A DNA stretch of 64,000 nt from an uncultured Elusimicrobia bacterium (lineage in GTDB: Bacteria; Elusimicrobiota; Elusimicrobia; Elusimicrobiales; Elusimicrobiaceae), in assembly GCA_947306425.1 (NCBI GenBank), contig CAMZGO010000008.1, positions 105 through 64,104 of the forward strand. Reading direction: 5' to 3'. Within the stretch, counting starts at the first letter, position 1, and the number at the start of each line of letters is the position of its first letter. The notes below the pieces were generated by a model. The model saw only the letters and a program-made list of their open reading frames with translations, searched no databases and was not told the DNA's origin. Positions 1 through 56,500 of the stretch are shown piece after piece. The position numbers and the translations under genes were made by a program.

Positions 1-378
1 AAAAAAGCAATTTTCAAATCAAAGGTAGCAGAAATGATAATGATGGGTAAAAATATTAGAGAGGCTCAAAAACGTTATTTCTTAATTCATAATCAATATA
101 CTAATAATATAAATAACTTAGATATTGAGCTTCCTTCTTGTGAATGGAATTATACCGGTGCTTCTAGTATAGGTACATGTCAAAATGGCTCATTATACGT
201 ATACGACACAGGTATGACTTCCTTCTATGATGAACCTTCCAATAATTTTTGGATTCATTTTTTCAGTTCAGGTAAAGATGAATGTTCAGATAAAGAATCT
301 GAGAATCGTTGTAAAGATTTAGGATATTATATAGGATGCGGCTATCATGGTAGTATTTACCGCTGTTACAATAGGTAG
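1..378 (+). CDS. type IV pilin-like (prepilin-type) protein, C-terminal part; 5' end lies outside the window
   Basis: Frame 1 is open from nt 1, with no stop before the listed ATG at 34. The Cys-rich central part (NLDIELPSCEWNYTG...) parallels the two complete prepilin paralogs at 11484-11999 and 18670-19137 (VLDVELPSESECS). The N-terminal methylation motif would lie upstream of the window. Confidence 0.5.
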   Translation, partial: KKAIFKSKVAEMIMMGKNIREAQKRYFLIHNQYTNNINNLDIELPSCEWNYTGASSIGTCQNGSLYVYDTGMTSFYDEPSNNFWIHFFSSGKDECSDKESENRCKDLGYYIGCGYHGSIYRCYNR

Positions 379-450
379 TTTTTTCTTAAATATCTGCAAA
401 AATAACAATAGTATGTTCCTTTTTTGGTAAAATATATTAGGGGAGATATT

Positions 451-3138
451 ATGCCAAAAAAAGAAATAAAAAACAAAACTATAACAGAAGAAAAAGTAAA
501 TTCCGTTAAAGCACTTGAGGCTTTAATTCAAAAAGTAAAAAAAGCACAGGAAATTTTTGCGACTTACACTCAAGAACAAGTGGACGCAATTTTTAAAGCA
601 GCCGCTGCCGCCGCAAATAAAGCGCGTATACCGCTTGCCAAAATGGCTGTGGAAGATACCGGTATGGGTGTAGTTGAAGATAAAGTTATTAAAAATCATT
701 TCGCAAGCGAATATATCTTTAATAAGCACAAAAATATTAAAACCTGCGGTATCATTAAAGAAGACAAAATCAACGGCACAAAAACAGTTGCCGAACCTTT
801 GGGCGTTATCGCAGGAATTATTCCGACAACCAACCCCACATCTACAGTAATTTTCAAATCTTTAATTTGTTTAAAAACCAGAAACGGCATAATATTTTCC
901 CCCCATCCGCGCGCTAAAAAAAGCACTATTGAAGCTGCAAAAATTGTCTTGGACGCAGCCGTAAAAGCCGGCGCGCCGGAAAATATTATAGGTTGGATTG
1001 ACGAACCTAGCCTTGAACTTACAACTTATTTAATACACAATGAAAATATCGCCACTATTTTAGCAACAGGCGGAACAGGGATGGTTAAGGCATCATATTC
1101 TTCGGGCAGGCCGGCACTCGGCGTCGGCCCCGGAAATGTTCCGGCAGTAATTGACGAAACTGCTGATATTAAAACTGCGGTAAGCTCAATTTTACTTTCA
1201 AAAACTTTTGATAACGGTATGATTTGCGCCTCAGAGCAATCAATAATTGTTGTTGATAAAATTTACAATGAAGTTAAAAAAGAACTCGTTAAACGCGGTG
1301 CCTATATTTTAAGTAGTGCGGAAGAAAAGAAAGTTTCCTCAATCCTATTAATTGACCCGCGCACCAAAGGCCTTGCTTGCACTAAAGATGCTTATAAAGC
1401 CGCCTTAAAATGCGGCTGCACAAGCGTGAACCCAAAAATCGTCGGTCAAACAGCAAGAACAGTGGCTGAACTTGCAGGTATCAAAGTGCCGGAAGATACA
1501 AAAGTATTGGTAGGGGAGGAAACCTCTTACGACGTTATGAATCCCTTTGCACATGAAAAACTTTCCCCCGTTATTGCTTTGTATAAAGCTAAAGATTTTG
1601 AAAAAGCAGTACATATTGCACATCAGCTGGTTTTGCTTGGAGGTGCAGGGCATAGCGCCGCTTTTTATACAAATCCTTTAAATCAGGACAGAATAAATTA
1701 CTTTTCAGCCCAAATACCTACTTGCCGTTTGATTATAAATTCCCCCTCCTCGCATGGCGGCATAGGGGATTTGTATAATTTTAAACTTGAACCGTCTTTA
1801 ACTCTAGGTTGCGGCTCTTGGGGCGGTAACTCCGTAAGCGGAAATATAGGTGTGGAACACCTTCTTAATTATAAAACAGTTGCAGAAAGGAGAGAAAATA
1901 TGCTTTGGTTTAAAGTTCCCAGAAAAATTTATTTCAAAAGGGGCGCGGTAGATTTGGCTTTACGCGTATTAAAGGGCAAGAAACGCGCATTTATCGTTAC
2001 GGACAGGTTTTTATTTAATTCCGGCGCGGTTTCAGCCGTAACAAATGTTTTAGAAGAACTTGATATTGATTATCAAATTTTCTTTGATGTTAAACCGGAC
2101 CCAACCCTTTCAACAGTAAAACAAGCGATGGATATTATCAATCCTTATGAACCGGATTTAATTATTGCACTTGGCGGCGGTTCACCTATGGACGTTGCAA
2201 AAGTCATCTGGCTTAAATATGAACAGCCGGAAACTAATTTTGAAGATATTTCCATGCGCTTTATGGACATACGCAAACGTATTTGCCAAATTCCGGACTT
2301 GGGTGTAAAAGCAAATTTAGTTGCAATTCCTACGACTTCGGGTACAGGTTCTGAAGTAACGCCTTTTTCAATTATTACAGATGATGAAACCCATATCAAA
2401 TATGCTTTAGCTGATTATGCTTTAACACCTGATATGGCTATAGTTGACCCAAATTTCGTTGATAATATGCCAAAGGGTTTGACTGCCGCATCAGGTATTG
2501 ACGTTTTGGTACATTGTTTGGAAGCCTATGTTTCTTCCATGGCAACAAATTTTACAAACTCTAATTCTTTAGAAGCAACAAAACTTGTTTTTAAATATTT
2601 AGTCCGCTCTTATAAAGACGGTGCAAAGGACCCTATTGCACGCGAAAAGATGCATTATGCCGCAACTATTGCCGGTATGGCTTTTGCAAATGCTTTCCTT
2701 GGTTTATGCCACTCCATGGCACATAAATTAGGTGCGGCTTTCAATATACCGCACGGCGTAGCAAATTCACTTTTAATTTGCCAGATAATTAAATTTAATG
2801 CTACGGATTCCCCTAAAAAGCAAGCGGCTTTCCCGCAATACAAATACCCTTGTGCAAAAGAACGTTACGGTCAAATTGCCGATGAACTTAAACTCGGCGG
2901 TAAAAATGATGATGAGAAAGTTAAACTGCTTCTCAAAGCCATCATTAAACTTAAAAAAGATATTAATTTGCCGGCTTCAATCAAGGAATACGGTATTAGC
3001 CGCAAAGACTTTGAGTCCAAATTAGACGAACTTGTTGAACTTGCTTTTGATGACCAATGCACCAGCGCAAACCCTGTATATCCGTTACTAAAAGATATCA
3101 GGCAAATTTACCTTGATGCTTATGAAGGTAAGATTTAA
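451..3138 (+). CDS. adhE: bifunctional acetaldehyde-CoA / alcohol dehydrogenase
   Basis: ORF 424-3138. The ATG at 451 is preceded by a GGGGAG RBS. An N-terminal aldehyde dehydrogenase half and a C-terminal iron-type ADH half are joined by the AdhE linker (GGIGDLYNFKLEPSLTLGCGSWGGNS). Confidence 0.95.
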   Translation: MPKKEIKNKTITEEKVNSVKALEALIQKVKKAQEIFATYTQEQVDAIFKAAAAAANKARIPLAKMAVEDTGMGVVEDKVIKNHFASEYIFNKHKNIKTCGIIKEDKINGTKTVAEPLGVIAGIIPTTNPTSTVIFKSLICLKTRNGIIFSPHPRAKKSTIEAAKIVLDAAVKAGAPENIIGWIDEPSLELTTYLIHNENIATILATGGTGMVKASYSSGRPALGVGPGNVPAVIDETADIKTAVSSILLSKTFDNGMICASEQSIIVVDKIYNEVKKELVKRGAYILSSAEEKKVSSILLIDPRTKGLACTKDAYKAALKCGCTSVNPKIVGQTARTVAELAGIKVPEDTKVLVGEETSYDVMNPFAHEKLSPVIALYKAKDFEKAVHIAHQLVLLGGAGHSAAFYTNPLNQDRINYFSAQIPTCRLIINSPSSHGGIGDLYNFKLEPSLTLGCGSWGGNSVSGNIGVEHLLNYKTVAERRENMLWFKVPRKIYFKRGAVDLALRVLKGKKRAFIVTDRFLFNSGAVSAVTNVLEELDIDYQIFFDVKPDPTLSTVKQAMDIINPYEPDLIIALGGGSPMDVAKVIWLKYEQPETNFEDISMRFMDIRKRICQIPDLGVKANLVAIPTTSGTGSEVTPFSIITDDETHIKYALADYALTPDMAIVDPNFVDNMPKGLTAASGIDVLVHCLEAYVSSMATNFTNSNSLEATKLVFKYLVRSYKDGAKDPIAREKMHYAATIAGMAFANAFLGLCHSMAHKLGAAFNIPHGVANSLLICQIIKFNATDSPKKQAAFPQYKYPCAKERYGQIADELKLGGKNDDEKVKLLLKAIIKLKKDINLPASIKEYGISRKDFESKLDELVELAFDDQCTSANPVYPLLKDIRQIYLDAYEGKI

Positions 3139-4506: not shown

Positions 4507-4588
4507 TGGACGGAGAGGGACTTGAACCCTCACGGATTGCTCCATACGCTCCTAAGGCGTACGCGTCTGCCGATTCCGCCACCCGTCC
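4507..4588 (-). tRNA. tRNA-Leu (anticodon UAG), class II with long variable arm, no encoded CCA
   Basis: Manual fold of the minus strand. Acceptor GGACGGG/TCCGTCC, anticodon stem TACGC/GCGTA with loop CT-TAG-GA, variable arm GGA-GCAA-TCC, T arm GAGGG-TTCAAGT-CCCTC. Confidence 0.85.
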
Positions 4589-4614
4589 CTCAATATGAGA
4601 TATTTAAAAGAAAA

Positions 4615-4687
4615 TGGGCCATGAGAGACTCGAACTCTCGACCTTACGCTTAAGAGGCGTCTGCTCTACCAACTGAGCTAATGGCCC
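4615..4687 (-). tRNA. tRNA-Lys (anticodon CUU), no encoded CCA
   Basis: Manual fold of the minus strand. GGGCCAT acceptor, D arm GCTC-AGTTGGTA-GAGC, anticodon loop CT-CTT-AA, T arm GAGAG-TTCGAGT-CTCTC. Confidence 0.9.
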
Positions 4688-7993: not shown

Positions 7994-10900
7994 ATGAAAA
8001 GACTTTTTAATTTGCTTACACGCAAAGATTTTTCCGCTTTATTTTGGGCACAAATATCAGGTGTAATGAATGATAATATAACAAGAACCGCCCTTGCAAC
8101 TTTAATAGCAGGTAAAATACTGACTGTTTATAAGCCACAAACCTCTAATATGGTATTCCTCATACTCGCCGTTTATATGCTGCCGTTTTTTATTTTTTCA
8201 ATTTCTGCCGGACAAATCGGTGATAAATATGATAAAACAAAGGTTACGCGTATAATAAAATTGACAGAAATTTTTACCGTACTAATTACTATACTCGGTT
8301 TTTACTTAAACTCAATAGTAATTTTATTTATATCTTTGTTCATTATGGGTTCACAATCCGCATTTTTTGGCCCCCTCAAATATGCTTTGATGACACAAAT
8401 TTTGCATAAAACCGAATTGATTGACGGAAATGCCTTACTTGAATCAAGCCGATATCTTGCAATTTTATTTGGAACTATACTAGGTACTATGTTTATTACC
8501 CCGAAAATCGGGCTTGGAACAATGTTCATAATTATGTTGCTTTTGGCTTTAGCCGGATACTTCGTAACCGGTTTATTTAGCCCTTTAAAACCGCTTGCTA
8601 AGGATTTAAAAATTAACCCAAATATTTTTAAAAGTACCTGGCGTAATTTATCAAGGGCGCAAAAATCAAAAAAATTATTTTTGGCAATTTTGGCTATTAA
8701 CTGGTTTTGGGTTGTAGCTGCTATTTTGCTATCCCAATTAAATACGGTTACGACATCCATTTTGAACCTCACGCCCTCAGTATACATTTTTTTAATGACA
8801 GTATTTTGTGTTTCCGTAGGAATAGGTTGTTTAGCCTGTTATCGTTTGGTTAAAACAGAAATCAGTATTAAATATGTACCGTTAAGTACGGTGGGAATGT
8901 CCCTTTCACTACTATTTATCGCATTTATTTTGGCAATTATGCCGGATTTCGCCGCACCTGTAAATCTGACCTACTTTTTAAGTTCACTTTTCGGGTTAGG
9001 TTTAACTATAGGAATAATCGTACTTTCAATTTGTGCAGGCTTATATATAGTACCGCTTAATGCCCACTTGCAAGCAATGTTAGCTGAAAAATTTAAAACA
9101 CGTATGCTTGCAACTTGTAACTTTTTAAATGCTTTCTTTATGGTAATTGCCGGGGCTATAACCTATGCCTTACTCTGCGTCGGGTTCGGAACCCCTGTAA
9201 TTATTGCCGTTTTGGCCCTGGCGAATTTTATAATTGCTATTTATACCTGTACATTACTACCCGATTATGTTTTAAGATCCGCAGTATACTTCTTACTTAA
9301 CAGTATTTACAAAATTAAATTGCGCGGTATGGAAAATTATTCCCAAGCCGAAGGGCCGACAGTAATAGTCGCAAACAACAATTCTTTCTTAGATCCTCTT
9401 TTGCTGGCTGCTTTTTTACCGGAAGATATTGTATTTATGGTTGACAGCAATATTGCCAAACGTTTTTGGGTTCGTATCTTTTTAAGATATGTGCGCCATA
9501 TTCCCGTAGACCCTACGAATGCAATAGCCGTAAAAACAATTATTGATAAAGTTAAAAAAGGCACAAAAGTTGTAATTTTCCCTGAAGGACGCATGAGCAC
9601 CACAAGCGGTATCATGAAAGTTTACCCCGGGCCTGCCATGGTTATTGAACGTTCCGGCGCACAAGTTTTACCTATTTTTATTCAAAATACACAATATACA
9701 AGGTGGTCTTACTACGGACGCAAACTCAGGCACCTGCCCAGCAATCTGGAATATGTAATAAACATTTTACCACCCAGAAAACTAAATATATCAAGCACTT
9801 TAAAAGGCCGTAACCGCCGTTATAAAGCTGAAGATGCCGTCTATGATTTAATGCTTGAAATGAAAGTAAAAAGTTTTAATTTACAACATACAATTTTCCG
9901 TTGCTTAATTGAGGCCGTTGATTTGGCACGCCGTTCTACCCGCGCTTTGGAAGATATGACGCGCAAAACTGTATCTTTCGGAACTTTGCTTACAGGCTCC
10001 TTTTTACTCGGTCGCAAGTTTACACAATTTTCAAAAGAGGGTGAATTTGTCGGTTTAATGCTGCCAAACGTTAATGCATGTGCGCTTAGCATTTTCGGCT
10101 TAATGGCTTATGGGCGTGTTCCTGCAATGATTAACTTTTCCGCCGGCATAAAAAATATTTTACTTGCTCTAAAAGTAGCACAGATTAAAGTGATAATAAC
10201 CTCCCGTGCTTTTGTAGAAAAAGCAGAACTTGGAAATATAATTGAATCAATAAATCAAACAGATACAAAAATTATATATCTTGAAGATATTCAAAAAACC
10301 ATCACTTTAGGAGATAAACTGCTTGCCTTGACACAAAGTTTCTTCCCACATCAAAGTTATAAAATAATTTGTAAGGACAGAAACCCGGATAAACCTGCAG
10401 TTGTCTTGTTTACCAGCGGTTCCGAAGGCGCACCAAAAGGTGTAGTATTAAGCCATAAAAATTTAAATATGAACAGATACCAAATGTCCAGTTTAATTCA
10501 AATGGGTTTACAAGATAAATTTTTCAATGCCTTACCTATGTTCCATAGTTTCGGCCTTGCGTGCGGTTTATTTATACCTATTTTAAACGGTGCCTCTGTG
10601 TTTTTATATCCCTCACCTTTGCACTATAAAGCCATACCTGAACTTGTTTATGACAGAAATGCAAATGTATTCTTTGGTACGGATACATTCTTAAATGCTT
10701 ATGGAAAACAAGCACATCCCTATGATTTTTACAATATTAAATATATCGGTATCGGCGGAGAAAAACTAAAAGATGAAACATTTTCTTTGTGGACGGAAAA
10801 ATTCGGCATACGCATTTTAGAAGCGTACGGGACCACAGAGGCAAGCCCTGTTGTATCTTTCAATACTCCCATGTATTACAGGCGCGGAACAGTGGGCAAA

Positions 10901-11425
10901 TTACTGCCTTGCATGGAAGCAAGAATTGAAAAAATTGAAGGTATACAAGAAGGCGGCCGCTTATTTATTAAAGGCGACAATGTTATGCTTGGTTATTTAA
11001 AGGAAAATAAACCGGGTGTTATTCAACCGCTTAAGGACGGTTGGTATGATACCGGCGATATTGTTGACTTTGATAAAGACGGTTTTGTTGTAATGAAAGG
11101 CCGAGCAAAACGCTTTGCTAAAATTGCCGGGGAAATGGTTTCCTTAACGGCAGTTGAATTTGCTATGACGGAAACTTGGCCGGATATCAAGCACGCTGTT
11201 ATCTCAAAATCCGACGCAAAACGCGGCGAGCAACTTATTGCCTATACTCAAAAACAAGATGCAGACTTAAAGGTTCTACAACAAGCATTAAAAGACAAAG
11301 GTTTTAGCGAACTTTGGATACCTAAAGTCCTGCGCGTTGTAGAAGAAATACCGCTAGGCGGTACAGGCAAAACCGATTATATAAAATTGAAAACCAACGA
11401 AATAAAAAATTTCGGGGAAAATTAA
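7994..11425 (+). CDS. aas: LplT-like MFS transporter / PlsC-type acyltransferase / acyl-ACP synthetase (Aas-like) triple fusion
   Basis: 1143 aa. About 430 aa of 12-TM MFS at the N terminus. A central acyltransferase block (FPEGRMS). A C-terminal AMP-binding domain (LFTSGSEGAPKGV, EAYGTTEASP, GDIVDFDKDGF). Confidence 0.88.
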   Translation: MKRLFNLLTRKDFSALFWAQISGVMNDNITRTALATLIAGKILTVYKPQTSNMVFLILAVYMLPFFIFSISAGQIGDKYDKTKVTRIIKLTEIFTVLITILGFYLNSIVILFISLFIMGSQSAFFGPLKYALMTQILHKTELIDGNALLESSRYLAILFGTILGTMFITPKIGLGTMFIIMLLLALAGYFVTGLFSPLKPLAKDLKINPNIFKSTWRNLSRAQKSKKLFLAILAINWFWVVAAILLSQLNTVTTSILNLTPSVYIFLMTVFCVSVGIGCLACYRLVKTEISIKYVPLSTVGMSLSLLFIAFILAIMPDFAAPVNLTYFLSSLFGLGLTIGIIVLSICAGLYIVPLNAHLQAMLAEKFKTRMLATCNFLNAFFMVIAGAITYALLCVGFGTPVIIAVLALANFIIAIYTCTLLPDYVLRSAVYFLLNSIYKIKLRGMENYSQAEGPTVIVANNNSFLDPLLLAAFLPEDIVFMVDSNIAKRFWVRIFLRYVRHIPVDPTNAIAVKTIIDKVKKGTKVVIFPEGRMSTTSGIMKVYPGPAMVIERSGAQVLPIFIQNTQYTRWSYYGRKLRHLPSNLEYVINILPPRKLNISSTLKGRNRRYKAEDAVYDLMLEMKVKSFNLQHTIFRCLIEAVDLARRSTRALEDMTRKTVSFGTLLTGSFLLGRKFTQFSKEGEFVGLMLPNVNACALSIFGLMAYGRVPAMINFSAGIKNILLALKVAQIKVIITSRAFVEKAELGNIIESINQTDTKIIYLEDIQKTITLGDKLLALTQSFFPHQSYKIICKDRNPDKPAVVLFTSGSEGAPKGVVLSHKNLNMNRYQMSSLIQMGLQDKFFNALPMFHSFGLACGLFIPILNGASVFLYPSPLHYKAIPELVYDRNANVFFGTDTFLNAYGKQAHPYDFYNIKYIGIGGEKLKDETFSLWTEKFGIRILEAYGTTEASPVVSFNTPMYYRRGTVGKLLPCMEARIEKIEGIQEGGRLFIKGDNVMLGYLKENKPGVIQPLKDGWYDTGDIVDFDKDGFVVMKGRAKRFAKIAGEMVSLTAVEFAMTETWPDIKHAVISKSDAKRGEQLIAYTQKQDADLKVLQQALKDKGFSELWIPKVLRVVEEIPLGGTGKTDYIKLKTNEIKNFGEN

Positions 11426-49144: not shown

Positions 49145-50425
49145 ATGAAAAAGTCTTTAACTATTGTTTTGTCCTTACTTTTATCTGCTGCTTTATCGGC
49201 ACAAAATATAGATGGTACAAATTTACAAGAACAGAAATTAACTTTAGAGGATTGCATAAATTTAACACTGCAAAATAACCCGGAAATTGCTGCTTCTTAT
49301 TCCACACAGGAAGCGCAAAAGAGCCAATTAAAACAAAGTAAATCAAATTATTTTCCTCAAATAAACGGCAGCGCCGGTTATAACCGCTCAAACAGTAACT
49401 CCGCCCAAGGTAACAGCGGAACAAATAACAATTATTCCGCTTCAGTTAATGCTACACAACTTATTTATGATTTCGGGCAGACGAGTTCAACCGTAGGTAT
49501 ACAAGAAAAGTCTTATCAAAGTGCAGTGCAAAATACAACCGCTTTAATTAATGACAAAATTTATGCTTTAAAGGTCGCTTATTATGCGGTATTATCTGCG
49601 GAAGAATCAGAAAATGTTTACAAACAGTCCGTAGAACAATATACAGAACAATTAAAACGCGCAAAGGCATTTTATGAAGTGGGAACATATCCTAAAATTG
49701 ATGTAACTTCAGCGCAAGTAAATTTAAATGATTCAAAATTGAATTTATTAACCGCCCAAAATTTAGTAAAAACAAGACGGCAAGAACTTTTAAATGTGAT
49801 GGGTATATCAGACCCAAACCCCACTTTTAGTTTGGAAATGACAGATGTTTTACCCCCCTTTGAACTTACCTTAGAAGAGGCCTTAAAAGAAGCCAATAAA
49901 AACAGGCCCGATTTGCTTTCAAAACAACTGCAAGTTGAAAGTGCAAGACAAAATGTAACACTGGCTAAAACCGGCTTTGCACCAACCCTTACCGCAAACG
50001 GAACTTATGTTTGGAGCGGGGCAGAATTTCCCCTCTATGACCGTTGGTCAGCAGGTGCGAATTTAAATGTCCCTATTTTTAGCGGTCTTAGCACCTATAA
50101 TAAAGTTGAACAGGCAAAACAAAATCTTCAAACATCCTACAGCAATTTAACTGCTTTAGAGCAAAAAATTTTGCTTGAAGTTAAAACCGCTTATCTTGCT
50201 TTAAATAATGCAAAGGAACGTATACCCGTTGCCGAACTTACAAAAGAGCAGGCAAAAGAAAGTTATGATTTGGCCGTCGGCAGATATAAGGTCGGTGTAG
50301 GAAATTATATTGAAGTAAAAGATGCGGAAACCTCTTACAGTAAGGCAAAACTTTCCTATATTGAAGCGGTTTTTGATTACAATTTGGCAGTTGCAAAATT
50401 AAAAAATTCAATAGGAACAAGATAA
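49145..50425 (+). CDS. tolC: TolC-family outer membrane efflux protein
   Basis: Signal peptide and two OEP repeats. Confidence 0.87.
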   Translation: MKKSLTIVLSLLLSAALSAQNIDGTNLQEQKLTLEDCINLTLQNNPEIAASYSTQEAQKSQLKQSKSNYFPQINGSAGYNRSNSNSAQGNSGTNNNYSASVNATQLIYDFGQTSSTVGIQEKSYQSAVQNTTALINDKIYALKVAYYAVLSAEESENVYKQSVEQYTEQLKRAKAFYEVGTYPKIDVTSAQVNLNDSKLNLLTAQNLVKTRRQELLNVMGISDPNPTFSLEMTDVLPPFELTLEEALKEANKNRPDLLSKQLQVESARQNVTLAKTGFAPTLTANGTYVWSGAEFPLYDRWSAGANLNVPIFSGLSTYNKVEQAKQNLQTSYSNLTALEQKILLEVKTAYLALNNAKERIPVAELTKEQAKESYDLAVGRYKVGVGNYIEVKDAETSYSKAKLSYIEAVFDYNLAVAKLKNSIGTR

Positions 50426-50433
50426 GGAGAATT

Positions 50434-51588
50434 ATGAAATTAATTAAGAAAAAATATGCAATAATCGCAATCATTGTAACAGTATGTGCGGCTATATTTT
50501 TGCTAAAGGGATGCAAAAACGGCAAGGCCGCAAATTACCGTATTGAAAATCCGCGCCGGGCAAAAATAGTACAAACGGTTGAAGCGTCAGGTACCATTAA
50601 CCCCGTTACACAAACAAGTGTAGGAACACAAATTTCCGGCAGGGTAGAACAAATTTTCGTTGATTATAATTCTATTATCAAGAAAGGACAATTACTTGCA
50701 GTTATTGACCCTTCTACTTATCAATCAAATGTAATTCAGCAAGAAGCGAATTTACAAAAACTTGAAAGTATTTTCAAAAATGCCAAACGTAATTATGAAA
50801 GATACAAAAAATTATATTCCCAAGAACTTGTCGCAAAAAGCGAACTTGATAATGCGGAGATGGATTACCTTTCCGCCAATGCCCAAATGGTGCAAGGGCG
50901 CGCAAGTTTGGATAAAGCAAAAATTGATTTGAGTTATACAAATGTCGTTTCCCCGGTAGACGGAATAGTAATTTCAAAGGAAGTGGAATTGGGGCAAACT
51001 GTCGCAGCAAGTTACCAAACGCCTACTTTATTTTTAGTAGCCGAAGATTTAACAAAAATGCAGATTGAAGTTAATATTTCAGAGGCTGATATAAGCAAAA
51101 TTAAAGAGGGTCAAAAAGTTAATTTTAATATTGATGCGTACCCGACAACTACCTTTGAAGGCCAGGTAAGCCAAGTGAGAAATGCCGCCACCACTATTTC
51201 AAATGTTGTTACTTATACTGTTGTTGTTTCCGTTGATAATAGTGAATTACTGCTTAAACCCGGTATGACGGCAAATGTGGCAATAATTACCGCCGAAGTA
51301 AATGATGCCTTAAGTGTTCCGAATCAAGCCTTACGTTTTGTACCACCTGATAATGCAAAAATATCCGGCGATAAAGCAGGGCAGCGCAAGAACTTTAAAG
51401 GGCAGGGTTTATGGCGGCAACATAGGGACGGCTCTATTTATATAACAGAAGTAAAAACAGGAATAACAGACGGTAATAAAACTGAAATTATTTCCCAAGA
51501 AATAACTGAAAATACACCCATAATAGTTGCTAGCGAAAATACAAAAAGTAAAAACGGCAACCGCCGTATGGGGCCACCGGGATTTTAA
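50434..51588 (+). CDS. MacA/HlyD-type periplasmic adaptor
   Basis: N-terminal TM, biotinyl-lipoyl-like and coiled-coil hairpin pattern (VGTQISGRVEQIFVD...LLAVIDPS). Confidence 0.87.
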   Translation: MKLIKKKYAIIAIIVTVCAAIFLLKGCKNGKAANYRIENPRRAKIVQTVEASGTINPVTQTSVGTQISGRVEQIFVDYNSIIKKGQLLAVIDPSTYQSNVIQQEANLQKLESIFKNAKRNYERYKKLYSQELVAKSELDNAEMDYLSANAQMVQGRASLDKAKIDLSYTNVVSPVDGIVISKEVELGQTVAASYQTPTLFLVAEDLTKMQIEVNISEADISKIKEGQKVNFNIDAYPTTTFEGQVSQVRNAATTISNVVTYTVVVSVDNSELLLKPGMTANVAIITAEVNDALSVPNQALRFVPPDNAKISGDKAGQRKNFKGQGLWRQHRDGSIYITEVKTGITDGNKTEIISQEITENTPIIVASENTKSKNGNRRMGPPGF

Positions 51589-51602
51589 AAGCAGAGGGCA
51601 AA

Positions 51603-52307
51603 ATGTCTTTAATAAAAGTTGAACATATTTGGAAAATTTATAATCTTGGCGATATTCCGCTTGAAGTGCTTAAAGATGTAAGTTTAACTATTGATGCCGG
51701 TGAATTTGTGGCAATTATGGGGCCGTCAGGTTCAGGTAAAAGTACTTTTATGAATATGCTTGGCTGCCTTGATAAACCCACAAAAGGTACTTATATTTTA
51801 GACGGCATAAACATAACAAATTCTACTTTAAGCGAACTTGCAGATATTAGGTGCCGCAAAATCGGTTTCGTGTTTCAGGGGTTTAATTTAATTGCAAGAA
51901 CAAGCGCCATAGAAAATGTTGAACTGCCGATGATTTATGCGCATATTCCTTCTGAAGAACGCGTGCAAAAAGCAAAAAAAGCATTAAAAGAAGTGGGGCT
52001 TGAAAACCGCTTGGACCATACACCAAACCAACTTTCCGGCGGTCAACAGCAAAGAGTTGCAATCGCGCGCGCTATCGTAAATGATGCACCGATAATTTTT
52101 GCCGACGAGCCAACCGGCAACCTTGACACAAAAACCAGCATTGAAGTTATGGAAAGTTTTTATAAGTTAAATGAAGAAAAAAATAAAACAATTATTCTTG
52201 TTACTCATGAACCGGACATCGCCGCATACGCAAAAAGAATTGTACGTTTTAAAGACGGTGTTATCGTAAGTGATGAGCAAAATAAAAATAGGACAAAACC
52301 ACAATGA
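51603..52307 (+). CDS. MacB/LolD-type ABC transporter ATP-binding protein
   Basis: GPSGSGKST Walker A, LSGGQQQRVAIARA signature, IIFADEPTGNLD Walker B. Confidence 0.93.
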   Translation: MSLIKVEHIWKIYNLGDIPLEVLKDVSLTIDAGEFVAIMGPSGSGKSTFMNMLGCLDKPTKGTYILDGINITNSTLSELADIRCRKIGFVFQGFNLIARTSAIENVELPMIYAHIPSEERVQKAKKALKEVGLENRLDHTPNQLSGGQQQRVAIARAIVNDAPIIFADEPTGNLDTKTSIEVMESFYKLNEEKNKTIILVTHEPDIAAYAKRIVRFKDGVIVSDEQNKNRTKPQ

Positions 52308-53539
52308 TTGATTTTTTAACTATCTTAAAAATTGCCTTAAAGGCGCTTTGGGTAAACAAAATGCGTTCGGTTTTAACTAGTTTGGGCATAATTATCGGTG
52401 TAGCGGCGGTTATTGTTATGCTTGCAGTCGGCGAGGGAAGTAAAAAGCGTATTTCTGACCAAATGTCCAGCATGGGCAGTAACTTGCTTATGATACGTTC
52501 CGGTTCTGTTACTTCAAGCGGTGCACGGGCAGGGCAAGGCGCACAGCCGACGCTTACTTTAAAAGATTCTGAGGCTATTGCAAAAAATGCCCAACATATT
52601 GCACAAGTTGCGCCAAGTGTTAGTTCAACGGCACAAATTGTTTACGGCAATCAAAATTGGTCTACAAGAATTACGGGGACTACCCCCTCCCTCTTTTACA
52701 TTCGTTCTTGGGAAGTTGATAACGGTGCGCTTTTTACTGATGATGAGGTCCGCCAAGGGGCAAGTGTCGCAATTTTGGGTGAAACTGTGGTGGAAAATTT
52801 GTTCGGTGTCCTTGACCCAATCGGAAAAACCGTCCGCATAAATAATGTACCTTTTAAAGTGGCGGGTGTTTTAAAATCACTTGGGCAAAATGCCATGGGT
52901 ACGGATCAAGATGATACCGTAATTGTGCCTATAACAACAGCAATGAAACGTTTATCAGGTTCACAATTTCAAGGAACGGTAAATAATATTATGGTGCAGG
53001 CACTTTCCACCGATGATTTAGCCGCTGCGGAAGAAGAAATTACACTTCTGCTCCGCCAACGCCATAATATTACCGGTAAAAAACAAGATGATTTTATCAT
53101 TCGCAATTTAACACAAATGATGGAAAGCGCCATGGAAGCAAATGAAACTTTTAGTTTACTGCTTGCCGCGATTGCATCAATTTCTTTGCTTGTCGGCGGC
53201 ATTGGTATTATGAATATTATGCTTGTATCTGTAACGGAAAGAACGCGCGAAATCGGCATCCGTATGGCTATTGGCGCAAAGATGTGGGATATACGCCTTC
53301 AGTTTTTAGTGGAAGCGCTTGTTCTATCTTTAACAGGCGGCTTGCTTGGGATAATTTTAGGGCTTTCCGTTGCTTTGTTTATTAAGAATTTTACACCGGA
53401 CTTTTTACCAATCAGCATAACTATTACCCCGATGGTAATTTCTTTTGCATTTTCCGGTTTAGTGGGAATTTTCTTTGGGTTTTATCCGGCGTACAAAGCG
53501 TCTATGCTCAACCCAATTGACGCCTTAAGGTTTGAGTAA
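52304..53539 (+). CDS. MacB-type ABC transporter permease (MacB_PCD + FtsX)
   Basis: N-terminal TM, periplasmic domain and a C-terminal FtsX-type 3-TM bundle. 4-nt overlap with the ATPase gene. Confidence 0.9.
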   Translation: MIDFLTILKIALKALWVNKMRSVLTSLGIIIGVAAVIVMLAVGEGSKKRISDQMSSMGSNLLMIRSGSVTSSGARAGQGAQPTLTLKDSEAIAKNAQHIAQVAPSVSSTAQIVYGNQNWSTRITGTTPSLFYIRSWEVDNGALFTDDEVRQGASVAILGETVVENLFGVLDPIGKTVRINNVPFKVAGVLKSLGQNAMGTDQDDTVIVPITTAMKRLSGSQFQGTVNNIMVQALSTDDLAAAEEEITLLLRQRHNITGKKQDDFIIRNLTQMMESAMEANETFSLLLAAIASISLLVGGIGIMNIMLVSVTERTREIGIRMAIGAKMWDIRLQFLVEALVLSLTGGLLGIILGLSVALFIKNFTPDFLPISITITPMVISFAFSGLVGIFFGFYPAYKASMLNPIDALRFE

Positions 53540-53540
53540 A

Positions 53541-56500
53541 CTAAAATTTTTCTGAAAATAAATCAAGCCAATTTGCTTTATAATCTTCCGGGGTTGTTGC
53601 AAAAGCTTCTAAATCTAATGCTTTACCGATTTTAACTTGCGGAGCATTAATACCTGCCATTTCATAAAGCGCGTAAACAATAGCCAAATTAGCAGAAGCA
53701 CTACCTCGATAAAACGGCTTTGCATTTGTAAAAATGTAACTGATTTCGGATATATTATTATGCAATATATCTAAATCATCTTCGGTCAACTTTCCCCCTT
53801 GTTGTACATGCTCAATAATAGGTTTAATAAGATTATAATCTTCTTGTATAACCTTAAATGCGGCATCAATATTATTATGATAGACATCGCCATAATTATC
53901 TCTCTTAACTCCCGCCGGATGAGACATCTGATTTACCATGGAACCTAATTCTTCTAAATCAATACGAGTCAAAATAACTCCTTTAAAAGCGTGGGGCCTT
54001 CTATTTTTTGCAGTCCTTAAAAAATCATCCTGATATTCTGCATATGCATTTTCATGAAAACGTGTGTAAAACTCAATTGGCGTATTAGCTAAAATACCAA
54101 AGACAATATCATCAGATAAAGGTCCAAATTCTGATCCCATAAAATCACTAGGAGCAGATTTTTCATTCAGTGAATTGGCCATACCGTACTGCATCGGCCT
54201 CTCAATATATTCCCACATAATTTCATTAGATTCATTGTGTTTTTCCAAAAATAACTTTATTTGATTTATTTTTTTATGATAAAGAAAGATCTTTTTTCCC
54301 ATGTTTTTTACCGCTTCTTCTATACTTTTGCCTAACATTAAGTCCTGTTCAAAATTTTCTGTTATATCTTTCATAGTATAAACATATAAAGGATTAGTAC
54401 CCGGAAATTTAGATTTTTCTTCGCTCGGCAAAGTGGTTTCGTAACGGTCAGAATATTTGATAAGTTCATCGAATTCTTGAGGACTATCAATAGCCATTTG
54501 CCTAAGATTTTTATTGTAATACTTTTGCCAATCTTTATAAAAATCTACCCCCACAATTTCTTGCATTTTTTGGCTTTCTTCTAAGTTTAAGGGTTTACCG
54601 CTGAAAATTCCCGGAACAAATTGTTTGCGTGAATTAATAAATTTTTCCACTTCGCTTTCAAATTTCGGTACCGGCATTTTGATACTTCCCACAAGCGGTA
54701 CGGTTGCTAAAGCAAACGGCAAAGTTACAGGGTTTAACAAACTAAAAGCAAACAAACCGACACCGACGGCAGGCAAAACCCAACCCGGTAATTTAGATAA
54801 AAGTGAATTATTTTCTGCATCAGAATTGGTTTGATTTTTTACCGGTGTTTCAACAGTTATCATATTGTCAGTCGGTTGCAAAATAACTTCGCCGTTATTA
54901 TCCAAACTCGCGCGCCACCAACCGATTTTGCCGTCTAACTGCGCCCATACTAAAACATCCAAAATACTTTCTGCACCTATATTGCCTGTTATTACTTCTT
55001 GAGTATCTTGAAACCTACCGTCAGATTTAACTTTAACCACAACAGGGGCTATTCCGCCGAGTTCAAAGCGTTTGGCAAAACTTACGGCAAAATCTGCGTT
55101 CGGCGTCAAGTAATTTATACCTTCTTGTGTTTTGCCTACAGATAAACCATATTTCAAAACATCTTGTAGTTCGCCGTAAGAATGTAATACTATACCTCTG
55201 TATAAAGATAATTTATCTCTAAAACCTTCAGGCAACAAGTCCCTCATTTTCCCTCTAGTGGCTTTTATATTTTTTACGATATTATCTTTGTAATCCCATG
55301 TAAAAATATTTTTAGCTGAAAAAGTTACTGTTTTTAGATTTAAAGGCTTTTCATCAGGGGTAGATTTTTCTTTTGCACCGATATCTTCCAGGCCTAAACG
55401 AATTCTGTTTAGTTCATAAATATCATTATGATTCAAATCAAAATACTCAAAATCTATTATAGTTACAATAAGTTTTCCATTTTCATCACGTCTAAAAAAT
55501 ATATTATTCCATAAATCAGTATGATAAAAACCTTCTGCATTTAAATCTTTAACAAAATTTACAATTTGTTCCCATTCTTCATTTGTTATCTTAACACCTC
55601 TTAACGCAGCCATTGCTTCTGCACCTACTTTGGATATATTACCACGAATTATAACTTCCCAATTATCAACAATATTAACATACAATTTGTCTTGTAACGT
55701 AAAACCGGAAGTATTTACCGGTGACATTATCATATAACGTCTAAGCCAACTACATCTCTTTTTGACTTCATTTGCTATTTCATCCGATAAATCAGATAAA
55801 TTTGTTGACAACACTGTCGGACTTTCAACACCTATCAAAGGATATCTAGATGCAAATTTTTCTTTAAGAGTACTAAAGAGTTTTGTCCTGCTTATTTCGT
55901 CCGTTCCTGTTTCTATTCCTTTATCAGATATTCCTGTATAGTAGGCCTTTACCTCGTTATCAGAACCTATTAATTTCCCAACTGGAAATCTAACTTCCAC
56001 CACTTTCTTAATATCCGTTTTAAGGTTTAAGGGGTTTTCAGAATTTATTTTTTGCGTTAAGCTAGGTCTGTTAAAACTTGCCAAAAACGGTAAAGCTGCT
56101 AAAGCCATAGCGGGTTCTACTGCACCGTTAATGAGCGCCGTTAAACCCAAACCGATACCCAAAGCCGGCATTATTAAAGATTTAAAAGAAAATTTATTTA
56201 AAACAACAATATTTTTTGATTTGTAAATTTCATTTTTAGGTAACAGTAATTCTTTTATTTCTGTTCTAGTCTTATTTGCGATAGGATTATGAGGATCAGA
56301 ATAATCAAGCATTATTTGATAATTAGTTGCCATATCCCCATCAATAACATAAAAATGGAAATGATATCTCGGTGCATCATTAGATAAAGAATATTCATGC
56401 CGCGCAATACGAACTATTTTATTACTATCATTACTGTATAAGCGAAGAACATTCCATCGGTCAATAAATAAGGCATAAGCAGGGTTTTGGGGTGTCGCAT

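Follow-up and report, generated by a model that had tools for sequence, protein, structure and literature searches.

Repeated hydrophobic linkers join predicted effector-type enzyme cassettes in a giant protein family of Elusimicrobiaceae

Short hydrophobic elements accompany soluble domains in several described systems. Monotopic phosphoglycosyl transferases of the PglC type are held in the membrane by a re-entrant helix of ~30-36 uncharged residues with a proline-containing break and a basic interface, the two ends of which lie on the same face; this helix anchors a single catalytic domain. Chlamydial Inc proteins, which are delivered by type III secretion, contain one bilobed domain per protein, with hydrophobic lobes of ~20 amino acids (aa) each (40-60 aa in total), and helical hairpins are also found in other effectors. 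MARTX toxins join their effector domains through unstructured linkers that are cut by a protease. AB toxins, including diphtheria toxin (TH8-TH9), CNF1/PMT and TcdA/TcdB, have a single translocation region per toxin, with an acidic pH-sensing tip. At flavivirus/HCV junctions, which are viral and based in the eukaryotic endoplasmic reticulum (ER), two short hydrophobic stretches and a short polar turn with conserved charges lie between units. PEP-CTERM/exosortase and LPXTG/sortase signals place a short motif, a hydrophobic stretch and basic residues in that order. Finally, polymorphic toxin systems combine an N-terminal trafficking region and a variable C-terminal toxin domain with one or more adjacent immunity genes (Zhang et al. 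2012, PMC3482391).

The window analyzed here is a 64,000-nucleotide stretch of DNA from an uncultured Elusimicrobia bacterium. On its minus strand, an open reading frame (ORF) running from 53541 to beyond 64000 encodes at least 3,485 aa and, as found by translation, contains six in-frame copies of a hydrophobic linker, H1 to H6 (Table 1). All six copies lay in a single reading frame and within a few bases of the positions given for them in the original prediction. The reading frame (ORF called at 53541..63866) has no stop up to base 63998; the gene is therefore cut by the end of the window and lacks its N-terminal part, and further linker copies may lie upstream. A self-BLAST map gave the module order A-B-H1-B-H2-A-K-B-H3-A-B-H4-X-H5-K-B-H6-A, in which every one of the five B domains directly precedes a linker, and H5 follows the unique module X rather than a B domain. 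Pfam scanning of the 3,441-aa product detected AvrB_AvrC in four stretches (E=7.7e-19) and Kdo in two (E=1.4e-11), with nothing else above threshold. The B domain was modeled by AF2 with a pLDDT of 85-97. Its best Foldseek match was 1wfx (KptA/Tpt1; E=7e-3, prob 0.99), with further matches to EcPltA, pertussis S1 and PARP10, and at a TM of about 0.25-0.35 an ADP-ribosyltransferase (ART)-like fold is weakly predicted. Module X had no Pfam match and no counterpart among other family members. The cassettes would be toxin/effector-type enzymes, comprising AvrB/Fic-like, ART-fold and Kdo/HopBF1-like kinase types, with a zeta-like kinase in relatives.

Table 1. Modules and linkers of the giant protein encoded in the window (positions count from the first base of the window)
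Feature	Position	Strand	Residues (aa)	Sequence	Basis or remark
Giant multi-cassette ORF	53541..64000	-			Translation, self-BLAST module map, Pfam, long relatives
Four A domains, AvrB/AvrC-like (Fic-fold related)	62982-63998 (partial), 60429-61529, 57876-58931, 53544-54665	-			Pfam, self-BLAST
Five B domains, ~170 aa, predicted ADP-ribosyltransferase-like fold	62421-62948, 61671-62201, 59067-59576, 57333-57842, 54822-55334	-			HMM copies, AF2, Foldseek
Two K domains, Kdo/WaaP-like small kinase	59577-60395, 55335-56060	-			Pfam, self-BLAST, HxDxxxN...IDFE motifs
Module X	56181..57206	-	2221-2562		Unique
Linker H1	62298..62408	-	487-523	GSFLLPIGIGLGLTALINGAAEPALALTALPFFASFS	Translation; AF2
Linker H2	61545..61658	-	737-774	NLLMPALGIGLGLTALINGAAEPALALSALPFFASFSN	Translation; AF2
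Linker H3	58938..59051	-	1606-1643	SLIMPALGIGLGLTALLNGSTGPALTLASLPVLAGFNT	Amino-acid conservation, without excess codon identity
Linker H4	57207..57320	-	2183-2220	NLLIPALGIGLGLTALINGAAEPSMAFATLPFFASFNK	Inside a 253-nt tract 81% identical to the H2 region (D5)
Linker H5 (copy flagged originally)	56067..56180	-	2563-2600	SLIMPALGIGLGLTALINGAVEPAMALAALPFLASFNR	Reference copy of repeat family D3; originally given as 56069-56183, KSLIMPALGIGLGLTALINGAVEPAMALAALPFLASFN
Linker H6, type II variant	54678..54791	-	3026-3063	LPGWVLPAVGVGLFAFSLLNPVTLPFALATVPLVGSIK	Translation

A total of 58 distinct linker copies were collected, and all of them belong to giant proteins of a single rare family, encoded in Elusimicrobiaceae MAGs. 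The linker is an uncharged segment of 36-40 residues with the layout K/R, lobe 1, a break of ~6 residues, lobe 2 and, mostly, K/R again. Lobe 1 comprises 15-20 uncharged residues and starts L-P-x-x-G-x-G-L (L-P-[AVI]-[LIV]-G), the break reads Asn-Gly/Pro ... Pro, and lobe 2, of 12-15 uncharged residues, has a conserved Ala and is kinked at a Pro. Over the 58 copies, the mean uncharged lobe lengths were about 19.7 and 15.3 residues, with an uncharged core of ~40 aa. Among 24 aligned family copies, only P11, G16, L22, A34 and P37 were near-invariant; the residues conserved (Pro, Gly, Asn, Ala and Leu) are of a structural kind, neither catalytic nor charged. The linker lies outside globular domains, as the original prediction required: AF2 left it out of the adjoining, confidently modeled B domain. 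The possibility that it belongs to the preceding B domain was rejected on the same evidence and because linkers follow other modules too, including kinase, AvrB-like, zeta and X modules in the family.

The order E-P, hydrophobic stretch and basic residues had been likened to C-terminal sorting signals. This analogy failed, since the Glu of 'AAEP' was present in only 7/24 aligned copies, at a variable tip position (E/A/G/T and others), and no sorting-signal HMM was matched. Searches of five linkers against NCBIfam and Pfam at E<=10 returned nothing meaningful, including no sorting-signal or signal-peptide model. Moreover, all six linkers are internal, with at least 374 aa after each. Thus, the linkers differ from PEP-CTERM signals in being internal and repeated and in having no conserved E-P, and from LPXTG signals in being internal and in carrying L-P-[AVI]-[LIV]-G without Thr.

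The repetition greatly exceeds what chance would give, and the five type-I linkers form a direct-repeat family at the DNA level (D3; 131 nt, 65-82% identical). Amino-acid identity among H1-H4 was 58-86%, compared with 42-49% for their adjoining B domains; H5, which falls outside this B-flank comparison, was 70-83% identical to H1-H4 over a 30-residue core. The earlier claim that the linkers are better conserved than their flanks was therefore borne out for H1-H4, but not for H6, which shared 35-40% identity with the other linkers, no better than its flanks. H6 proved to be a diverged equivalent, as had been proposed, and represents the type II variant that is the commonest type in other family members.

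Codon usage indicated that part of the similarity arises at the DNA level. H1 and H2 used identical codons at 26/29 identical residues, compared with 11.5 expected (P=3e-8), and an excess of identical codons was found among H1, H2 and H4 (P from 3e-8 to 2e-3). Codon identity in H3 and in the B domains was at expectation. The raw codon identities of H5 with H1, H2 and H4 (16/25, 16/25 and 19/25), which stand outside the expectation test, point the same way. These comparisons indicate that the near-identity of H1, H2 and H4 is owed partly to gene conversion between linkers; H5 was probably homogenized in part likewise, and gene conversion is probably also behind the gain and loss of whole cassettes. 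The description of the motif as nearly invariant overstates the constraint at the protein level because gene conversion contributes. Pure recent duplication was rejected, as synonymous sites in the B domains are saturated (357 identical codons versus 317 expected) and H3 and H6 have no codon excess.

Given this signal, the linkers might be recombination joints only, with the sequence kept by homologous recombination and cassette shuffling at the DNA level and the peptide a tolerated greasy spacer. The codon excess among H1, H2 and H4, the 253-nt tract shared by the H2 and H4 regions (81% identity) and the differences between orthologues by whole units adjoining linkers are all in keeping with such joints. 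However, H3, H6 and 50-odd linkers from other genomes retain the hydrophobic pattern and its Pro, Gly, Asn and Ala residues without codon identity, at 25-70% amino-acid identity, and the charge bias of the flanks and the uniform lobe lengths are protein-level features. We therefore regard a purely DNA-level role as very improbable. Since H3 and orthologous linkers hold the motif pattern without codon identity, selection acts on the peptide.

The physical properties of the peptide were consistent with a membrane element. In the 3,441-aa product, the only 19-mers with a Kyte-Doolittle score of >=1.6 were those of the six linkers. Their best 19-mers had a Wimley-White octanol dG of -3.6 to -8.7 kcal/mol, inside the range of genuine MFS helices in the relative P0004 (-2 to -10.7). 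A crude Hessa-type sum was marginal for the linkers (+3.0 to +3.7 kcal/mol per 19-mer), and this measure fails to separate them from the true MFS helices (+1.3 to +4.3). The first charged residue upstream of the linker was K/R in 41/52 copies (P=5e-6) and the first downstream in 37/55 (P=0.003). Basic residues had been noted as often following the motif, and those preceding it are even more regular. In an AF2 two-linker construct, both linkers were modeled as helix(14)-loop(6)-Pro-kinked helix(11) at low confidence (pLDDT 36-51), with helix 19-32, a loop and helices 39-43 and 45-49 for H1 (in model A3) and, at a pLDDT below 40, helix 269-282, a loop and helix 289-299 for H2. At 14 and 11 residues, the modeled helices fall short of canonical spans. 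Further, A, B and K cassettes were each found after both odd and even linker counts. Therefore, the linker is not a single membrane pass, and a single-pass transmembrane (TM) segment was rejected by this parity of cassette types.

Strand-like features were also apparent. In lobe 1, large residues alternate strongly with small ones (period 2), as would suit a beta-strand; lobes of 12-19 residues fit strands more readily than canonical helices, and aromatic residues occur at the flank-side ends. The linkers could thus be transmembrane beta-hairpins with strands of ~12 residues, the 6-10 hairpins of one chain forming a barrel or pore and the cassettes serving as giant loops. However, AF2 gave helices and no strands, and the putative strands would be apolar on either face, leaving no side to line a lumen. 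In addition, a near-invariant Pro lies midway along lobe 2, and orthologues differ in their number of linkers per chain (6 to 10 or more), unlike a defined barrel. A beta-hairpin structure accordingly has only a slim chance of being correct.

The design that is observed, an iterated element with a family-wide pattern, rare elsewhere, excluded from globular domains, and with characteristic hydropathy, flank charges and parity, would be best explained if each linker were a membrane-inserting helix-break-helix hairpin with both ends on one face. We give this explanation about an even chance, and we infer from the same properties that the linker probably enters a membrane, of either the producer's envelope or a target cell, where it may serve anchoring, cargo delivery or processing. 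The hairpin would partition into the bilayer, re-entrant or thin-spanning and back. Both of its ends would remain on one membrane face, so every enzyme cassette would lie on one side, pinned to the membrane surface by the hairpins. Of the three readings offered by the original prediction (membrane anchor, cleavage site, and pore or translocation segment), a helical-hairpin or re-entrant anchor gave the best fit to the hydropathy, the AF2 helix-loop-helix, the K/R flanks and the parity, although the AF2 confidence was low.

Among known elements, the PglC-type re-entrant helix resembles the linker in its helix-break-helix form, Pro break and basic edges, and the same-face ends of the linker are a proposal. 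No sequence relationship was found by Pfam or by a PDB profile search, which returned only a non-significant TM-helix match (ActF, E=0.88), and, in contrast to the single-domain PglC anchor, the linker is internal, iterated 6-10 times and joins unrelated enzyme cassettes. The Inc bilobed domain and other effector hairpins likewise have two hydrophobic lobes, a short turn and moderate hydrophobicity, with the adjoining soluble parts on one side, as is proposed for the linker. The linkers, however, have shorter lobes (15-20 and 12-15 aa), are iterated and lie in a carrier with a Sec signal, and no type III secretion system (T3SS) genes were found in the loci of the window or its relatives.

The side of the membrane on which the cassettes reside is addressed by two sets of evidence. 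Full-length relatives begin with classical Sec signal peptides, and cysteine is nearly absent, with 1 residue in the 3,441 aa of the window product versus a background of 1.02% (P=1.6e-14) and 0.03-0.14% in all family members. Depletion of this kind is a usual trait of proteins that pass through membranes in an unfolded state, and this export context adds to the case for a membrane-inserting hairpin. Together, the Sec signal and cysteine depletion suggest that the cassettes are exported. On the other hand, an MFS_1 domain that seems complete is part of the chain of the relative P0004. A complete MFS domain brings the chain back to the side where it started, in keeping with the parity of the cassettes. 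This insertion and the K/R-rich flanks suggest a location at the cytoplasmic face.

Alternatively, the chain could act as a secreted multi-effector toxin, in which the hairpin of each unit enters a target-cell membrane and helps the adjoining cassette to cross. Diphtheria toxin TH8-TH9, CNF1/PMT and the hydrophobic region in large clostridial toxins work on this principle; here, every cargo unit would have a hairpin of its own. Such a role shares the membrane-inserting hairpin with the preferred explanation and differs in delivery. The Sec signal peptides of relatives, the extreme cysteine depletion, cassette types that work within cells (AvrB-like, ART-fold, small kinases and zeta-like) and the lack of immunity-like small genes beside the carrier gene would all suit it, as would the moderate hydrophobicity, so that the hairpins might escape arrest in the inner membrane of the producer. 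The linkers also resemble the AB-toxin hairpins in being rich in G/A/L/I/P and in lying beside enzymatic cargo. However, the acidic tip residue expected of pH-triggered hairpins, as in the diphtheria toxin T domain, is not conserved, and no receptor-binding or known translocation domain was recognized in the N-terminal regions; in that of P0001 (residues 1-961), Pfam detected only a REC domain. Further, no path for crossing the outer membrane was found, and the MFS domain of P0004 fits a secreted toxin poorly. Cargo translocation is therefore considered unlikely, if plausible.

The small residues of the linker raised another possibility, that the hairpin is a stop-transfer and internal signal-like pair that is cut by signal peptidase I or an intramembrane protease, with the cuts releasing or tail-anchoring individual units as at flavivirus/HCV junctions. 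Lobe 2 closes with the pattern 'P-phi-phi-[AGSV]-[SGNT]' in 43/58 copies, and in 44/58 the turn leads into 'P-x-phi-small-phi-[AGS]', giving conserved small-x-small positions behind helix-breaking prolines that are compatible with signal peptidase I. Lys, a hydrophobic stretch, an N/G/P-rich stretch (N-G/P...P) and A-x-A are compatible, though internal, with the n-h-c layout of Sec signal peptides, in which a basic n-region and an h-region of 10-20 aa precede a c-region that has a helix breaker and small residues at -3/-1, and family signal peptides end ...GFA|D, ...SFA|Q and ...LFA|T (sites placed by eye), much like the linker ...PFFA|S. Like the viral junctions, the linker places paired short hydrophobic stretches and a polar turn between consecutive units, with small residues at candidate -3/-1 sites for cleavage.

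Several observations run against such processing. No signal-peptide or sorting-signal model in NCBIfam or Pfam was matched, tight helix packing would equally call for small residues, and Phe would be an unusual residue at -3 for signal peptidase I. The turn is uncharged, unlike that of the viral junctions, and both flanks are basic, a poor fit with a cytoplasmic turn. In addition, no dedicated protease gene is conserved beside the carrier gene, and no natural gene fission at linkers was found among fragments. Processing at the linkers thus seems improbable. A specific version would make the whole chain a polyprotein of bacterial origin, in which lobe 1 serves as membrane stop or anchor and lobe 2 as internal signal; signal peptidase I would cut at P-phi-phi-[A/G]|S or the post-turn A-x-A and so turn one Sec-exported chain into effector units that are each tethered to the membrane or released. 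This version is slightly more improbable still.

The linker motif is short and sharply defined, and it appears confined to one lineage. A profile of the motif found 15 proteins at E<=1e-3 among 1.84 billion representative proteins, all of the same family, which on the sequences searched occurs only in Elusimicrobiaceae of the gut and rumen. Five relatives that are either full-length or long (2,865-5,786 aa) were recovered. The literature searched, on giant Elusimicrobia toxins, bacterial polyproteins and this domain combination, did not describe the family. Both the database and the literature searches agree with the earlier remark that an iterated internal element of this sort is known from no described protein, and hence with a hairpin-joint design without a described counterpart. 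The carrier family resembles MARTX toxins in being giant (3,500-5,800 aa) and, as predicted, secreted, with a strain-variable string of effector-type domains. However, the Pfam scan of the 3,441-aa product detected neither RTX/glycine-rich repeats nor a cysteine protease domain, the domains are joined by hydrophobic hairpins, and no HlyB-type type I secretion system (T1SS) signal or nearby transporter was detected; the transporter adjoining the carrier gene is MacB-type (MacB_PCD and FtsX, with a separate ABC ATPase) and convergent. This MacB/HlyD/TolC operon is syntenic in the window and in relatives' loci L001, L003, L004 and L005 and is absent beside P0004. The window and the relatives' loci yielded no secretion or processing partner for the carrier gene. 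With regard to polymorphic toxin systems, the family has a signal peptide, a large N-terminal region and variable toxin-type cassettes; its toxin domains are multiple and internal, and no immunity-like genes flank the carrier gene in these same loci. An anti-phage defense system was rejected for want of a PADLOC match, as was a plasmid or phage origin, with no tblastn match and a locus that is chromosomal and syntenic.

If the hairpins insert into membranes, they would constitute an undescribed way to organize and deliver many toxin/effector enzymes from one gene, in which each cargo unit has its own membrane element; MARTX toxins instead use one translocation region or a separate secretion machine. 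The gene-conversion signal suggests that the linkers also act as hinges for cassette shuffling. Elusimicrobiota are common yet barely studied members of gut and rumen communities. Huge proteins are over-represented in this phylum (PMC11573180), and membrane insertion of the hairpins would provide a first functional handle on them.

The original prediction described six copies of a hydrophobic linker (H1 to H6) between cassettes. All six intervals translated, in the frame of one giant minus-strand ORF, to the described motif, with coordinates accurate within a few bases, confirming that the repeated element is real. The flagged copy, H5, reads KSLIMPALGIGLGLTALINGAVEPAMALAALPFLASFN and falls within a single listed ORF of 3,441 aa. 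At the DNA level, the five type I linkers (H1 to H5) form a direct-repeat family, D3, of 131 nt with 65-82% identity; H6 is of type II. The frame of the giant ORF was open up to base 63998, with no in-frame stop to the window edge, and the extra upstream residues, KEILGEETFNVWHKYYNKDL..., matched the start of the repeated A module. Thus, the window end truncates the gene, whose product is at least 3,485 aa long. By analogy with its relatives, the unseen upstream part may hold more linkers, an N-terminal region of about 1,000 aa and a signal peptide.

Positions of the giant gene, its elements and neighbouring features (window nucleotides unless another sequence is named; values for P0001 to P0005, P0013 and the L005 giant protein are residues)
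Feature	Sequence	Position	Strand	Content
Giant ORF	window	53541..63866	-	
Open frame upstream of giant ORF	window	63867-64000	-	
Linker H5	window	56069-56183	-	
B domains	window	54822-62948		five copies
Module X	window	56181-57206		
D5 tract, first arm	window	57208-57460		H4 and B4 tail
D5 tract, second arm	window	61546-61798		H2/B2-tail region
Convergent operon	window	49145-53539	+	TolC-like OEP, HlyD-family adaptor, ABC ATPase, MacB-type permease
tRNA genes	window	4507-4687	-	two neighbouring genes
1,143-aa ORF	window	7994-11425	+	MFS domain, acyltransferase, AMP-binding enzyme
Prepilin-type (N_methyl) genes	L001	8729-9827		
Prepilin-type (N_methyl) genes	L003	9312-9770		
Extra TM-like segment	P0001	~505-560		
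Extra TM-like segment	P0002	~545-600		
Extra TM-like segment	P0003	~520-580		
Extra TM-like segment	P0005	~490-545		
MFS_1 domain	P0004 (locus L002)	~190-640		
Third-variant linkers	P0003	3328, 4418, 5089		
Third-variant linkers	P0013	273, 557		
Third-variant linker	L005 giant	1267		

Self-comparison and Pfam searches gave the architecture A-B-H1-B-H2-A-K-B-H3-A-B-H4-X-H5-K-B-H6-A. The A modules were AvrB_AvrC-like (four stretches, E=7.7e-19), and the K modules resembled the Kdo/WaaP-like small kinases (two stretches, E=1.4e-11), with intact HxDxxxN...IDFE motifs. The B domain, of 170 aa and without a Pfam or PDB sequence match, was folded confidently by AlphaFold2 (AF2; pLDDT 85-97). Its best structural neighbours were KptA/Tpt1 (1wfx; E=7e-3, prob 0.99), EcPltA, pertussis toxin S1 and PARP10, a weak match. 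In agreement with these ADP-ribosyltransferase-fold neighbours, the B alignment displayed a conserved Y-R-G ... Y-F-[ST] ... acidic-residue pattern, and B may represent a new ART-like toxin family. Module X (342 aa), between H4 and H5, is the sole unit here made of a single unknown domain; it had no Pfam match and no counterpart in any other retrieved family member.

A profile built from the linkers detected 58 distinct copies, spread over the window protein, five long relatives (P0001 to P0005; 2,865-5,786 aa), twelve fragments and another two genomic loci. In a search of 1.84 billion representative proteins, it retrieved only 15 at E<=1e-3, all of the giant-protein family, and the linker had no match in Pfam, NCBIfam or PDB sequences, or in plasmid or phage collections. 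The family consensus was x-x-L-x-x-x-x-L-P-A-x-G-I-G-L-x-x-T-x-L-x-N-G-x-x-x-P-x-L-A-L-A-x-L-P-F-x-A-S, in which only P11, G16, L22, A34 and P37 were near-invariant alignment positions. A third variant carries an extended second lobe (...ALAAGTGLLLSSTFPI...) of about 20 residues, near full transmembrane length. A PEP-CTERM or LPXTG signal was rejected, as the linker is internal, lacks the conserved signature and has no HMM match. With the Glu of "AAEP" present in only 7/24 aligned copies, the E-P sorting-signal analogy that accompanied the proposal of cassette cleavage failed. Polyprotein processing at signal-peptidase-like sites within the linkers would agree with the small-x-small patterns behind prolines in 43-44 of 58 copies, but these sites are putative, being read from sequence, and the charge distribution of the linkers is a poor fit; we consider such processing rather improbable.

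Conservation within the window was compared between linkers and their flanks for copies other than H5, which comes after module X. Amino-acid identity among H1-H4 was 58-86% versus 42-49% for the adjoining B domains, and H6 was 35-40% identical to the other linkers, not above its flanks. The 30-residue H5 core was 70-83% identical to H1-H4. Between H1 and H2, 26/29 identical residues used identical codons, compared with 11.5 expected from codon usage (P=3e-8), and the H1-H4 (19/25) and H2-H4 (20/29) pairs were likewise far above prediction. Codon identity was at expectation for H3 against the other linkers and for the B domains (357 versus 317 expected); H5, outside this test, gave raw identities in the same direction with H1, H2 and H4 (16/25, 16/25 and 19/25). 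The two arms of the 253-nt D5 tract were 81% identical and shared the identical peptide VSREETSNSNLNFKNLL, and the tract looks like a recent gene-conversion event reaching past the linker. The codon excess and this tract show gene conversion homogenising some linkers. The description "nearly invariant" must be qualified accordingly, as the near-identity of H1, H2 and H4 is in part a DNA-level effect. That the linker is purely a recombination joint is highly unlikely: although a DNA-level process does contribute, it leaves the family-wide pattern unexplained, and selection on the peptide pattern itself is evident from H3, from H6 and from the linkers of other genomes.

Elsewhere, the window has the content of an ordinary chromosome, with genes for AdhE, trigger factor, PolA, Rho, IleRS and tRNAs. 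Two of the tRNA genes neighbour each other beside the trigger-factor gene, and the 1,143-aa ORF looks like an LplT/Aas-type lysophospholipid transporter-acyltransferase fusion. The related loci all came from gut or rumen records labelled "MAG: Elusimicrobiaceae bacterium". The giant gene occupied the same position in L001, L003, L004 and L005 as in the window, and these loci kept the convergent MacB/ABC/HlyD/TolC-type operon, a candidate exporter link for the giant protein, which is absent from the different context of P0004. The stop codons of the giant gene and operon lie 1 nt apart. Upstream of the giant gene, in the loci that extend far enough, are argS and prepilin-like genes; one or two prepilin-type genes lie directly upstream in the same orientation in L001 and L003, and the corresponding region falls outside the window. 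Cassette content varied among orthologues: the window protein and P0001 were colinear, with whole linker-adjoining units present or absent. No immunity-like genes were found near the giant gene in the window or related loci.

In four relatives whose N-termini are complete, a classical Sec signal peptide came first, and about 1,000 aa without a known function came next. One more TM-like segment was present in the N-terminal regions of full-length relatives; a conserved Asp lay close to where it begins, and a strongly basic stretch came after it. This arrangement could mean that the chain passes through the inner membrane once, behind a periplasmic domain about 500 aa long. Cysteine was depleted in the giant protein (1 in 3,441 aa versus 1.02% in other window ORFs; P=1.6e-14) and in all family members (0.03-0.14% in P0001-P0005, L004 and L005); full-length relatives had the sole conserved pair (CxxxxxC) in their N-terminal region. 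Proteins that pass through membranes in an unfolded state, among them autotransporter passengers, RTX toxins and type III effectors, are typically depleted in this way.

Within the window protein, the linkers alone reached a Kyte-Doolittle hydropathy of >=1.6 over 19 residues. Their best windows on the Wimley-White octanol scale (-3.6 to -8.7 kcal/mol) were within the values spanned by the true MFS helices of P0004; a crude Hessa-type sum was marginal (+3.0 to +3.7), and the same sum failed to discriminate those helices. The uncharged core averaged about 40 residues (lobe 1 ~19.7, break ~6, lobe 2 ~15.3), with large and small apolar residues alternating strongly at period 2 in lobe 1, and was bounded by K/R upstream in 41/52 copies (P=5e-6) and downstream in 37/55 (P=0.003). 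AF2 never packed the linker onto a neighbouring domain. Linker pLDDT was below 40 in a one-linker construct; in a two-linker construct, each linker was modelled as two helices, the first of 14 residues and the second of 11 residues with a Pro kink, joined by a 6-residue loop (N-G-A-A-E-P), at pLDDT 42-51. These predicted helices, together with apolar residues on both strand faces, Pro in mid-strand and variable copy number, argue against linkers as beta-hairpins building one barrel, for which we see very little likelihood. The same cassette types followed odd and even linker counts, so a linker cannot pass just once through the membrane if enzymes that are homologous are all to work in one compartment. 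The most economical reading, with about an even chance of being correct, is a membrane-inserting helix-break-helix hairpin with both ends on one face; among the three alternatives of the original prediction, this same-side hairpin is the best supported. The hairpin would either pin successive cassettes to one membrane side or help them engage the membrane. A hairpin of AB-toxin type translocating each unit is unlikely; the acidic tip is not conserved in the linkers.

The linker is similar in form to the re-entrant helices of monotopic enzymes and to the bilobed hydrophobic domains of secreted effectors, but is unrelated to either in sequence. A MARTX toxin was rejected, as the giant protein lacks RTX repeats, a cysteine protease domain and a HlyB-type exporter. 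Elusimicrobiota are enriched in huge proteins according to a survey (PMC11573180), and no description of this family was found in the literature searched. We therefore class linker and giant protein as a variant in which a hydrophobic hairpin is combined with a giant multi-effector toxin, both of known kinds; what is new is a dedicated hairpin iterated as the joint between cassettes. P0004 carries a complete-looking MFS_1 domain in frame, between its N-terminal region and first zeta-toxin cassette, and an MFS domain returns the chain to its starting side of the membrane; if the assembly is correct, this limits topology models. Two features, the basic linker flanks and the MFS insertion, favour a site at the cytoplasmic face of the inner membrane of the producer, and three others, the Sec signal, Cys depletion and effector-type cassettes, favour an exported protein that acts on another cell.
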